Shown here one piece after another: positions 61,044 to 64,000 of a stretch of DNA of 64,000 nucleotides; within the stretch, counting starts at the first letter, position 1; the number at the start of each line of letters is the position of its first letter. Source of the stretch: an uncultured Veillonellaceae bacterium (GTDB lineage: Bacteria; Bacillota; Negativicutes; JARBTT01); contig CAWDTA010000002.1 in NCBI GenBank assembly GCA_963805085.1, positions 1,248,001 through 1,312,000 of the forward strand. Direction: 5' to 3'. Under the pieces are notes generated by a model. That model was not told the DNA's origin and did not search any database. It saw only the letters and a list, made by a program, of their open reading frames with translations. The position numbers were made by a program, and so were the translations under genes.

Positions 61044-61274
61044 TTAACAGGTTAGTCTGCCAAATCGAGGATGATTGACTGGTTTTAAGCTAAGTTTGCG
61101 AACTATCGTAACGGCTTCTTTTAAAGGAATATCAATACGATCGGTTTTTGTTTCTAGTACGCAGATGGGATTGTCTACGCCAATTTCGCTGCCTGGCATA
61201 TAGACATATTCTTGATTGATGTTATCACCGTAGATAACACCAGCTTTGAGTTCTGCGGTTACCATTACACTCAT
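61044..61274 (-). CDS. Hypothetical protein (76 aa), likely co-transcribed with corA
   Basis: SD AGGTGA; 18 bp downstream of the corA stop; terminator follows. Confidence 0.75.
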   Translation of the reverse strand: MSVMVTAELKAGVIYGDNINQEYVYMPGSEIGVDNPICVLETKTDRIDIPLKEAVTIVRKLSLKPVNHPRFGRLTC

Positions 61275-61292: not shown

Positions 61293-62246
61293 CTAAAACA
61301 TATCTTTTTTCCAAAGTACAAATATACAAATAGCAGTCAGAAACGTTGCAATCGTAGAAACGTATAAAAAGCCACTTTCAGCATCACCAAAAGGAACTGG
61401 TACATTCATGCCAAAAAAGCTCGAAATCATCGTCGGAATGGCGAGGATAATCGTGATTGAAGCCAAGAATTTCATTACTAAGTTCAAATTATTAGAGATG
61501 ATCGAGGCGAAAGTATCAGCCACGCGACTCAAAATTTTGCTATACATTTCAACCATTTCTTTGGCCTGCTTATTTTCGATAATAACGTCTTCCAGTAAAT
61601 CTTCATCTTCTTCATACACTTTGACAATATGTTGTAAGTTGTGACTAGAACGTAGCCGCAATAATTTGTCTAGAACGGCACCATTCGAACGAAGTGAAGC
61701 ATTGAAGTAGGTTAAGCCTTTTTGCAATTCCAATAGCTGTAAGAGTTCTTGGTTTTTCATGGAGCCACGCAGTCTTTTTTCGATTTCATCAGATAATTTG
61801 CTGATCTGCCGCAAATACTTTAGATATAATGTTGCGGATTTATAAAGAAGTTGGAATAAAAAGCGTGTCTTTTTAAAGGTCCGAAACGTACGCGCTGTAG
61901 TTTCATTAAACTCAGAAATGACAGGATTGTCTTCCAAACTAACTGTTATTGTATAATCTTGTGTTAAAATAATAGCGAGAGGTAAAGTGTCATAGCTGTC
62001 GTTGGAACGTACAATCGGTACGTTGGTCACAACCATTACACAATTGTCCTCTAATTCTGTATGAGAACGTTCTTCTTCATCCAATGCGGATTTTAAAATA
62101 TCTATCTCAACTTCGGTTATATTACTGACTACTTTTAGTTCATAAGGTGTTGGATTCACTAAATTAATCCACGCGCCCCGTTCAATTGTTTTTATGCTTA
62201 GCTCGAGCAGTGGACCACTTTCCGAACTTTTGAAAATTCTAAGCAT
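61293..62246 (-). CDS. corA: CorA-family Mg2+ transporter
   Basis: WINLVNPT, ALDEEERS, SNNLN.VMK, FFGMNV signature and two C-terminal TM helices. Confidence 0.93.
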   Translation of the reverse strand: MLRIFKSSESGPLLELSIKTIERGAWINLVNPTPYELKVVSNITEVEIDILKSALDEEERSHTELEDNCVMVVTNVPIVRSNDSYDTLPLAIILTQDYTITVSLEDNPVISEFNETTARTFRTFKKTRFLFQLLYKSATLYLKYLRQISKLSDEIEKRLRGSMKNQELLQLLELQKGLTYFNASLRSNGAVLDKLLRLRSSHNLQHIVKVYEEDEDLLEDVIIENKQAKEMVEMYSKILSRVADTFASIISNNLNLVMKFLASITIILAIPTMISSFFGMNVPVPFGDAESGFLYVSTIATFLTAICIFVLWKKDMF

Positions 62247-62284
62247 AGTATTCCCCCTTCAGACAGGGAAATACCGCTATATTT

Positions 62285-62380
62285 TTACAAATTTATATTA
62301 GACAAGTAAAAAAACGGCAATATTCCCCTGATTTTATTTGTTTTTAACAATAACCGCAAACTAGGAGGGTCTACATCCAT
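62285..62380 (-). CDS. Putative corA leader peptide (31 aa)
   Basis: SD AGGTGA, then MDVDPPSLRLLLKTNKIRGILPFFYLSNINL*, lying between the promoter and corA. Confidence 0.6.
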   Translation of the reverse strand: MDVDPPSLRLLLKTNKIRGILPFFYLSNINL

Positions 62381-62421
62381 TTTTCTCACCTGCCTTCGTG
62401 TTTATAAGATATTACATTAAG

Positions 62422-62450
62422 ATATTACTCCTTGCGTATATAATAGTCAA
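62422..62450 (-). promoter_or_regulatory. sigma-A-type promoter of leader-corA transcript
   Basis: Minus strand TTGACT-N17-TAATAT. Confidence 0.6.
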
Positions 62451-62594
62451 GACAAGCGCACTGAAAATCAGGTTAAAGTTGCGTTAAGAATTATTTTTTT
62501 CCTTCATTAATATAAAATGTATACAATTCGATCGAGAGGGAATCATAAGCAAACAATAATTGTATTCTTTTTAGATTATGGAATATTTTTTTTA

Positions 62595-62624
62595 TTGACA
62601 ACCATTTATAAATTTTGCTATAAT
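62595..62624 (+). promoter_or_regulatory. tRNA operon promoter
   Basis: TTGACA-N18-TATAAT with extended -10 TGn. Confidence 0.8.
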
Positions 62625-62642
62625 ACTAAATGTGTCAAGCAC

Positions 62643-62731
62643 GGAGAGGTGTCCGAGTGGTTTAAGGAGCTGGTCTTGAAAACCAGTGATTCCGCAAGGG
62701 ACCGTGGGTTCGAATCCCACCCTTTCCGCCA
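62643..62731 (+). tRNA. tRNA-Ser (anticodon TGA)
   Basis: GGAGAGG acceptor stem, anticodon arm CTGGT-CTTGAAA-ACCAG, long variable arm, GTTCGAATC, encoded CCA. Confidence 0.97.
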
Positions 62732-62765
62732 TAAAATCTAATTGTTTTTATGAATTAAGCTTAAT

Positions 62766-62854
62766 GGAGTGGTACTCAAGAGGCTCAAGAGGACGGTTTG
62801 CTAAATCGTTAGGTGGGTAACCATGCGTGGGTTCGAACCCCACCCACTCCGCCA
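62766..62854 (+). tRNA. tRNA-Ser (anticodon GCT)
   Basis: GGAGTGG acceptor stem, anticodon arm ACGGT-TTGCTAA-ATCGT, long variable arm, GTTCGAACC, encoded CCA. Confidence 0.95.
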
Positions 62855-62869
62855 TTTAAATTGAAAGTT

Positions 62870-62900
62870 AAGACTTTGGAATATTTCCAAAGTCTTTTTT
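62870..62900 (+). terminator. tRNA operon terminator
   Basis: AAGACTTTGGAA-TAT-TTCCAAAGTCTTTTTT. Confidence 0.85.
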
Positions 62901-63257
62901 GTCGCCCCAAAAGGCTGTTGATAGCGATAAAGTTATGTCGTTTGTACGGCAGCCTATTTTATTCTGCAAATAATATGCTATAATGAAATTAATGTAATAA
63001 TGCAGTTTAAAATGGAATAATGATCTTGTCGTATAGTGAATTTTGAACTGAATTTTATTGAAGAAACACTGGAAATATAAAGATAAACTTATAATTTATA
63101 TCAGTGTTTCTCGTAAAAATTAAATAGTTTTTAATTAGGCAGTGCACATCTTTTAACTATATATAAATCGAAAAATTGTATAAGAAAGAATTCTTATACA
63201 ATTTTTTTTTAGTCTGAGCTGTACGTACATAAAATTTGGAAAGAGGATGGATGCGTT

Positions 63258-64000
63258 ATGTCAAATCTTAATGATACATTCACTAACATTGACTCTATTT
63301 CTCAACAGAATATTGGCATAAAGATTTGCAGCATTTATGCCTTAGTAGGAATTTTATGGATAACATTTTCTGATCAATTAACCCGCTACTTAGCTAGAGA
63401 CGTTGATGAAATGGTCTTAATGAGTACATATAAAGGTTGGGGATTCATTTTACTGACGACACTACTCCTCTATATTTTGGTACAACTTTTTCTTCAAAAA
63501 ATAGTTAAAATTAACGAACAGCTTAGTCTCTCTAATCAATCATTGGAGGCGTCTTATGAGGAGATTGCTGCCTCTGAAGAAGAACTACGTGACCAATATA
63601 GCCTGCTTGAACAGCAAAATAATGCACTGTATACTAGTGACCAGAATTTTCGCAGTCTGTTTGATAATATGCTCACCGGATTTATTGTCTATGAAATCAT
63701 TTACGATGATAAGGCGAATTTTATCGGTTTTCGCTTTCTAGCCGTTAATCCAGCTTTTGAAAAATTGACTGGCTTGAAAGAAAAAGATGTTCTTGGCAGA
63801 ACATCTTTAGAAATCTTCCCGCAAACTGGGAAATTGTGGCATGATCCATTTAAGGTAGTTGCCGATACTGGCAAACCTTATTCATTCACTTTGTTCGGAT
63901 ATGAAACGGGAAAATACTTTGAAGGAACCGCTTATCGCCCCACTTCCGACAGGGTTGCCATCCATTTCTTTGATTGTACCGCTCGCATTATGGGCCAGGA
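63258..64000 (+). CDS. Membrane PAS-domain signalling protein, 3' end runs off the window (output domain not visible)
   Basis: Not in the ORF track. Read from ATG 63258: two TM (IYALVGILWITFSD, YKGWGFI), coiled coil (SYEEIAASEEELRDQY), PAS (FRFLAVNPAFEKLTGL...VLGRT..EIFP). Confidence 0.85.
   Translation, partial: MSNLNDTFTNIDSISQQNIGIKICSIYALVGILWITFSDQLTRYLARDVDEMVLMSTYKGWGFILLTTLLLYILVQLFLQKIVKINEQLSLSNQSLEASYEEIAASEEELRDQYSLLEQQNNALYTSDQNFRSLFDNMLTGFIVYEIIYDDKANFIGFRFLAVNPAFEKLTGLKEKDVLGRTSLEIFPQTGKLWHDPFKVVADTGKPYSFTLFGYETGKYFEGTAYRPTSDRVAIHFFDCTARIMGQ

Follow-up and report, generated by a model that had tools for sequence, protein, structure and literature searches.

Background

In attenuation of the ermC/cat type, a ribosome stalled on a leader open reading frame (ORF) blocks a segment '1' of the transcript, segment '2' pairs with '3', and '4', which carries the Shine-Dalgarno sequence (SD) of the regulated gene, is thereby released. 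Here, we analysed a leader of comparable topology located directly upstream of corA, a gene encoding a CorA-family divalent-cation transporter, in a 64,000-nucleotide (nt) stretch of DNA from an uncultured Veillonellaceae bacterium (contig CAWDTA010000002.1 of assembly GCA_963805085.1; hereafter the window). All coordinates are positions of this window, in which both the leader and corA lie on the minus strand. The leader, of about 165 nt, contains a short upstream ORF (uORF), and an earlier reading of the DNA (the original prediction) had proposed that ribosome stalling at an Asp-Pro-Pro (D-P-P) motif of its peptide operates a three-way RNA switch controlling corA translation.

The nearest precedents, MgtL and corL, respond to Mg2+. 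In Salmonella and Escherichia coli, the short uORF mgtL lies upstream of the Mg2+ importer gene mgtA, and the EPDP motif next to its start Met makes ribosomes abort translation within six residues, an effect that is stronger at low Mg2+; the N-terminal placement of the motif matters, as a short nascent chain cannot stabilise the ribosome (bioRxiv 10.1101/2021.02.02.429294). The mgtA leader adopts two mutually exclusive folds, of which the OFF fold sequesters the SD of the uORF itself, and both the corA and the mgtA leaders of enterobacteria act via Rho (PMC11552253). The same article describes corL, the uORF of the enterobacterial corA leader, as starting with UUG and containing few acidic or Pro residues; in E. 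coli its translation increases with Mg2+ and is inverse to corA expression. Whether Mg2+ is sensed by the RNA or by the translating ribosome is there presented as still debated for enteric mgtA and corA. In Firmicutes, Mg2+ transporter genes are controlled by the M-box (ykoK, RF00380), an RNA that binds the metal directly, carries a terminator and lacks a uORF. According to PMC6429828, the 'corA motif' of Stav et al. (2019) has been reported from Gammaproteobacteria alone, and full-text literature searches, whose coverage was incomplete, returned no description of a leader peptide preceding corA in Negativicutes or any other Firmicutes.

The window's leader would work like the mgtL/mgtA, corL/corA and ermC-type systems but belongs to none of these RNA families. 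With mgtL/mgtA it shares a short uORF upstream of a gene of the Mg2+ importer type, an acidic/Pro motif just after the initiator Met (M-EPDP in MgtL, M-D-x-D-x-P in the window's family) and two mutually exclusive folds with the uORF SD hidden in the OFF fold. Unlike mgtL/mgtA, it occurs in another phylum, has no sequence or Rfam relationship to that leader, is lower in Pro (typically one residue, none in some leaders) and has as predicted output the masking of the transporter SD instead of Rho-dependent termination. The enterobacterial corL/corA leader controls the same gene family and likewise places a uORF within a leader with ON and OFF folds, whereas the leader described here is unrelated to it in sequence and ends in an SD-sequestering hairpin. 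From ermC-type attenuators the window's leader differs in that no antibiotic is involved, the signal being presumably an ion, and in that the segment corresponding to '1' is the leader's own SD and AUG, so that the ribosome needs to pause within the first few codons. The topology itself (1:2 and 3:4 versus 2:3) is alike: a leader ORF with its own SD precedes the regulated gene, and that gene's SD is part of a hairpin in which the 5' arm could instead pair with the region of the leader ORF. Rfam includes families for Mg_sensor and the gammaproteobacterial corA motif, and a search of positions 61900-63300 against Rfam 15 (E <= 10) returned neither an M-box nor any other relevant family, only two tRNAs and chance-level matches.

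Architecture of the corA leader

A sigma-70-type promoter occupies 62422-62450, with TTGACT at 62450-62445, a spacer of 17 nt and TAATAT at 62427-62422 (9 of 12 matches in a promoter scan). The uORF (62285-62380; MDVDPPSLRLLLKTNKIRGILPFFYLSNINL) consists of 31 codons and a stop; its ATG stands at 62380, its stop codon ends at 62285, and 38 nt separate the stop from the corA ATG at 62246. Codons 1-7 (62360-62380; M-D-V-D-P-P-S) form the conserved N-terminus and represent the candidate pause or abort site. The corA gene (61293-62246) encodes a protein of 317 amino acids (aa) that belongs to the CorA family (Pfam PF01544, 159.9 bits against a cut-off of 27) and carries the GMN motif, within FFGMNVP.

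The regulatory segments follow one another in the order A, 1 and A', A'' and 2, and 3. Segment A (62377-62395) consists of the uORF SD (AGGTGA), the AUG and the next G, and in the minimum-energy fold it is the 5' arm of a long helix, A:A'. Segment 1 (CAGGGGAAUAUUGC, 62317-62330) is an SD mimic within codons 17-22 of the uORF and a potential partner of segment 2. Segment A' (CCGUUUUUUUACUUGUCU, 62300-62317), the 3' arm of A:A', begins at the last base of segment 1, and its 5' half (62316-62306) can also pair with segment A'' (GUAAAAAUAUA, 62278-62288) in a long alternative hairpin, as indicated by an inverted repeat and by the fold obtained with segment A masked. The uORF stop codon sits at the 5' end of A''. 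Segment 2 (GCGGUAUUUCCCUG, 62264-62277) is an anti-SD whose partner is either segment 1 or segment 3 (GGGGGAAUACU, 62247-62257), the corA SD region.

The elements listed by the original prediction, i.e. the promoter, the AGGTGA SD, the 31-aa ORF and the 38-nt gap, were all recovered from the sequence and the promoter scan, as were the 14-bp complementarity between segments 1 and 2 and the pairing of segments 2 and 3 over the corA SD, both visible in the sequence and found again in the inverted repeat and the minimum-energy fold; the Rfam search agrees with its remark that no M-box is seen here. Its three-way switch turned out to be too simple, the system comprising four to five segments: helix A:A', which shares nucleotides with the 1:2 hairpin, had been missed.

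Distribution and conservation of the leader

The feature is, with little doubt, a real and widely conserved cis-regulatory leader. It is not a chance arrangement, because it outperforms shuffled sequences in folding (see below) and is found again 5' of corA in other families of the class. Searching 41 related genomes at the protein level provided a first set of corA loci from many families of the class, whose upstream regions share the promoter, the uORF start, the G-rich segment 1, the U-rich A' and the SD hairpin. The uORF was present at 23 of 30 loci of this set; the seven loci without it are those with the most divergent CorA (at most 59% identity). A covariance model was built first from three leaders, then from 13, and this model (R2) was run against 151 genomes sampled from the window's class. 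It matched 50 of them, exactly once each, and in 47 cases immediately 5' of a corA homologue; at least 47 of the 151 genomes thus carry the leader just ahead of corA. The three weakest matches (E 1e-4 to 2e-3) are A-tract/U-tract terminator hairpins and were rejected as false positives. True matches span 16 of 29 families, a lower bound, since the leaders L006, L018, L019, L024 and L029 are visible by eye and were unmatched in the R2 run. Another covariance model, based on the ON hairpin of four close relatives, proved too restrictive, finding about 16 leaders along with matches on the reverse strand, and was excluded from the counts. A strict DNA pattern for the uORF start, which covers just part of the leader family, was found in the window's genome alone among 401 genomes of the phylum, of which only 12 were from the class and none from the families with the exact form.

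Forty of the 50 homologous leaders have a promoter of the form TTGACN-N17-TANNNT, with a -10 element that ends 38-73 nt (median 42) 5' of the uORF AUG. By eye, about 17 of the 40 promoter-bearing leaders also show a TTAATGTAA-like motif right after the -10 element (62412-62421 in the window), which may mark the start of transcription or serve as an operator.

Some divergent corA leaders with an acidic uORF start were missed by the covariance model, i.e. L018 and L019 (MEGDTAGPS...) and L029 (VDGDPGGP...). L018 and L019 retain A:A', strongly covarying in L018, and the SD hairpin, while the 1:2 alternative is not evident in them; L029 diverges further. In L010, L017, L052, L055, L056, L058, L061, L063 and L067, insertions of about 50-190 nt separate A'' from segment 2.

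RNA structure and switching in silico

The 191-nt leader of the window folds at -45.2 kcal/mol, compared with -34.6 +/- 3.7 kcal/mol in 200 shuffles (z = -2.83), none of which folds as well. Its minimum-energy structure combines two elements: the long helix A:A', in which the uORF SD and AUG (62395-62377) pair with 62317-62300, and a hairpin in which segment 2 pairs with segment 3 and covers the corA SD. Both show covariation. In 42 full-length leaders aligned to the structure under test, the A:A' helices are 83-95% paired, with 10 of 18 pairs changed on both sides, and the 2:3 hairpin is 85.3% paired, with 8 of 10 pairs changed on both sides. Together, 88.5% of their cells are paired as against 78.6% in shuffles, a value reached by none of 500, and 18 of 28 pairs (102 cells) change on both sides; when the partners were slid by one to three columns, pairing fell to 47-55%. 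Unguided single-sequence folding of the 50 leaders gave A:A' in 41 and 2:3 in 45, the two together in 41, 1:2 instead in six, and both alternatives in none.

The competing fold starts from the complementarity of segments 1 (62330-62317) and 2 (62277-62264), which form 14 pairs, three of them G-U. These pairs are the outer part of an inverted repeat with 25-nt arms (62330-62306 and 62288-62264) that are 76% complementary and lie 17 nt apart, so that segment 1 and the 5' half of A' can pair with A'' and segment 2. The long hairpin including A'' appears in the fold of the window's leader with segment A masked, and comparable inner hairpins occur in other leaders. As A' belongs to both structures, helix A:A' and the long hairpin are mutually exclusive. 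The best upstream partner of segment 2 starts 41-59 nt past the uORF AUG in 44 of the 50 leaders, and the segment 1/segment 2 complementarity survives in the leaders with insertions between A'' and segment 2.

Support for 1:2 came from exchanging partners among leaders. Over 42 leaders, cognate 1:2 duplexes had a mean energy of -17.7 kcal/mol compared with -13.0 kcal/mol for non-cognate ones, a difference reached in none of 10000 permutations; the eight leaders left out were L006, L007, L017, L022, L029, L059 and L073, for which automatic region definition failed, and one duplicate. After de-replication to 26 leaders, the values were -17.8 (cognate) and -12.5 (non-cognate), and against GC-matched non-cognates the cognate duplex was better in 23 of 25 comparisons. 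Decoy regions of the same leader gave -6.1.

The ability of the leader to switch was assessed by folding with and without masked segments. In transcripts cut before the corA SD, pairing of segment 2 to the region of segment 1 has a probability (P) of at least 0.5 in all 50 leaders when segment A is masked (mean 0.81), and in 20 of 50 when it is not (mean 0.38). In the full-length leader of the window, accessibility of the corA SD is 0.30 for the free RNA; it rises to 0.71 when A is masked and stays at 0.30 when segment 1/A' is.

The uORF and its peptide

We infer from its conservation that the uORF is translated. Its frame is open over 25-42 codons, and over at least 25 in 50 of 50 leaders, whereas the other two frames are open to that extent in 8 and 4 of 50. 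The conserved start reads M-D/E-x-D-x-P, in which the two acidic residues are the only near-invariant ones: codon 2 is Asp in 48 leaders (GAT in 29, GAC in 19) and Glu in two, and codon 4, which lies outside the modelled helices, is Asp in 49 (GAC in 40, GAT in 9). Codon 3 is absent in six leaders (MDDHP...), codon 5 varies freely among R, H, P, G, I, Q, Y and L, and codon 6 is Pro in 42 of 50. Over the 50 leaders, Asp, Glu and Pro make up a fraction of 0.50 of residues 2-7 and of 0.11 of the remainder; in the window's leader they account for four of the six residues 2-7 (D, D, P, P), as in the windows of intrinsic ribosome destabilisation (IRD) of MgtL type. Beyond the first seven or so residues, sequence and length vary freely (25-42 aa).

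The position of the uORF relative to the RNA segments is conserved as well. The spacing of its SD is maintained among leaders, A' starts 57-70 nt past the AUG (most commonly 62), and the stop codon lies 3' of A' in 40 of 42 leaders and 5' of segment 2 in 38 of 42, at median distances of 13 nt from A' and 12.5 nt from segment 2. A reading frame kept across segment 1/A' was considered and rejected: the spacing is kept, though the start of A' modulo 3 is distributed 12/14/16.

The alignment of corA leaders that the original prediction had put forward as a check thus confirmed a conserved ORF with an acidic, Pro-containing N-terminus, apparently translated (frame open in 50/50, Asp or Glu at codon 2 in 50/50), and the covarying 2:3 hairpin, but not the D-P-P at which stalling had been proposed. 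This motif is limited to 2 of 50 leaders, the window's and that of its closest relative, and for this reason a polyproline/EF-P mechanism cannot be that of the leader family. Nor did columnwise counting raise 1:2 above the level of shuffles (see below). The competing pairings of segment 2, with segment 1 or with the corA SD, were supported by the exchange of partners, the covariation of 2:3 and the unguided folds.

A predicted attenuator of corA translation

On balance, we favour the interpretation that the leader is a leader-peptide-dependent translational attenuator of a CorA-family transporter, in which a pause in early elongation senses Mg2+ and exposes the corA SD. Two mutually exclusive folds would be involved. 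In the OFF fold, A:A' would hide the SD and AUG of the uORF and 2:3 would bury the corA SD; in the ON fold, segment 1 and A' would form one long hairpin with A'' and segment 2, leaving the corA SD free. The choice would be set by the position of the ribosome on the uORF at the moment segment 2 leaves the polymerase. A ribosome delayed within the first six or so codons (M-D/E-x-D-x-P) would cover A and so keep A' from pairing with it, allowing the long hairpin to form and corA to be translated. One that continues to elongate would cover segment 1, A' and A'' and terminate in the linker before segment 2, which would then pair with the corA SD, while A:A' closes behind the ribosome; it is the placement of the stop codon that would let a terminating ribosome cover segment 1, A' and A'' and yet leave segment 2 for the SD.

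Intracellular Mg2+ would be the input, N-terminal acidic/Pro nascent chains destabilising or slowing the ribosome more at low Mg2+ and thereby turning corA ON. Mg2+ appears the most likely signal because the regulated gene is of the CorA family and because of the MgtL and corL precedents. The pause itself we infer to fall at codons 2-6, with ribosome stalling at Asp-Pro and poly-Asp motifs in Bacillus subtilis (PMC11381351) as a precedent; the direction of the response, with low Mg2+ as ON, is plausible but not secure.

Several points weigh against this interpretation. Destabilisation gives ribosome drop-off and not a lasting stall, and the vacated segment A could re-pair with A', resulting in OFF; this is why the predicted direction is insecure. 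At equilibrium, masking A in full-length leaders raises SD accessibility in 38 of 50 but to 0.5 or more in only 12 of 50, the mean moving from 0.31 to 0.38; with so weak an effect the switch would, by these computations, have to be kinetic and set during transcription. The covariation counts of A:A' and 2:3 were obtained on leaders aligned to those very helices. For 1:2 the evidence is mixed, the pairing being supported by the exchange of cognate and non-cognate partners but not by the column count: on alignment A7, which is not fitted to this helix and has its segment 1 columns out of register, 63.8% of cells were paired compared with 62.7% in shuffles, and 94 of 500 shuffles were as high. 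RNAalifold likewise predicted no pairs on MAFFT alignments of the whole leader or of the region from segment 1 to segment 2, because these alignments are out of register. The conservation of the peptide may also lie partly at the RNA level, as Pro is missing from codons 5-6 in 4 of 50 leaders and the codon-6 Pro is CCT in all 42 leaders that have it. Finally, the corA product scores 99.3 bits against TIGR00383, the equivalog model of the CorA Mg2+/Co2+ transporter, i.e. below the NCBIfam cut-off of 200.75, and the protein is consequently assigned to the family and not to a transport substrate.

The CCT of codon 6 (62362-62365 in the window) is usually followed by AG, creating an out-of-frame UAG that persists despite amino-acid changes (TCTAG, TGTAG). 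With CCT unvarying and AG largely kept, this codon appears to be constrained at the level of the RNA. A further helix, joining codons 5-8 (CCUAGU) to the sequence that flanks segment 1 on its 5' side, was considered and dropped, as it occurs in few leaders except for its CC:GG core.

Alternative explanations

An attenuator built in the same way could respond to another aspect of translation, i.e. EF-P or ABCF activity (and hence ATP/ADP), the level of charged Asp-tRNA or Pro-tRNA, polyamines, pH or antibiotics that target the ribosome, corA then being tuned to the state of the translation apparatus. The architecture indeed matches that of antibiotic-sensing attenuators such as ermC, the two Asp codons are near-invariant, and the window's own leader contains D-P-P. 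In Bacillus subtilis, moreover, ribosomes stall at Asp-Pro and poly-Asp motifs, and EF-P as well as ABCF ATPases resolve acidic and Asp-Pro motifs (PMC11381351). We nevertheless regard another signal as unlikely, albeit the most serious of the alternatives: the element is found only before a CorA-family transporter gene, once per genome, consecutive Pro residues are present in just 2 of 50 leaders, and the nearest precedents respond to Mg2+.

Direct sensing by the RNA, be it by a riboswitch that binds the metal or by an equilibrium of helices that shifts with Mg2+, is improbable; the uORF would then not be required to sense and would be conserved through RNA constraints. Such a view would draw on the continuing debate over sensing by RNA or by translation in mgtA (PMC11552253), on the largely helical nature of the conserved uORF sequence (AUGGA lies in A:A', and segment 1/A' inside the ORF) and on the unvarying CCT of codon 6. 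RNA constraints alone would not explain why one frame is open in every leader and the other two rarely are, nor why the Asp of codon 4, outside the helices, is kept in 49 of 50 leaders with GAC/GAT variation and Asp at codon 2 is replaced by Glu. The preserved SD spacing and the stop codon set between A' and segment 2 also speak for translation. The helices of the leaders are plain, and no complex conserved core resembling a tertiary fold was seen among them.

An equally improbable reading makes premature termination, either Rho-dependent or intrinsic at the U-rich A', the main output, with SD masking secondary. The use of Rho by the enterobacterial corA and mgtA leaders (PMC11552253), the position of the U-rich A' after a helix and the cross-matching of model R2 to A-tract/U-tract terminators would fit it. 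An intrinsic terminator was, however, looked for on the minus strand of the leader and rejected, no terminator-like site being found there; the U-run lies within A:A' and not 3' of it, and the covarying 2:3 hairpin specifically covers the SD.

That the 31-aa product is a functional small protein, e.g. a membrane peptide acting on CorA, is hardly credible: some leaders do have hydrophobic C-terminal halves (e.g. GILPFFYLS), but conservation is limited to the first seven or so residues, the rest being free in sequence and length, and the reading frame over segment 1/A' is not kept.

Genomic context

Nineteen nt downstream of corA lies an ORF of 76 aa with its own SD (61044-61274, minus strand), which is probably co-transcribed with corA and hence under the same leader. 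Its product matched no Pfam or NCBIfam family. The ORF is also present at the corA loci of 15 other genomes (48-82% identity by tblastn), and its product looks like a conserved partner of this CorA.

On the plus strand, divergent from corA, are two tRNA-Ser genes with anticodons TGA (62643-62731) and GCT (62766-62854), preceded by a perfect consensus promoter, TTGACA-N18-TATAAT with an upstream TG (62595-62624).

The window's genome contains a single M-box (153.6 bits), located on another contig (C1:94671-94847, locus L078) and about 480 nt upstream of an ORF that, read by eye, resembles an MgtE N-terminal domain. The MgtE membrane domain (PF01769) was searched for in this 83%-complete genome and not found.

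Conclusions

The corA leader is a compact system of about 165 nt, unrelated to those described, whose N-terminal peptide is minimal and acidic and whose predicted output is purely translational. It may represent a convergent, independently evolved case in which a Firmicute lineage uses the ribosome to sense Mg2+: acidic codons 2 and 4 would pause or drop the ribosome on the leader's own SD, itself an arm of the switch, so that the kinetics of early elongation would be converted directly into exposure of the corA SD, without Rho or a metal-binding RNA; we put this forward tentatively, as somewhat short of probable. The roughly 50 natural variants supply many ready-made compensatory mutants. If the leader is Mg2+-responsive, sensing by an N-terminal acidic peptide would be a general solution that evolved more than once, the known regulation of a CorA-family transporter would come to include a group in which the M-box alone had been expected, and the leader would offer a simple model for early-elongation pausing.

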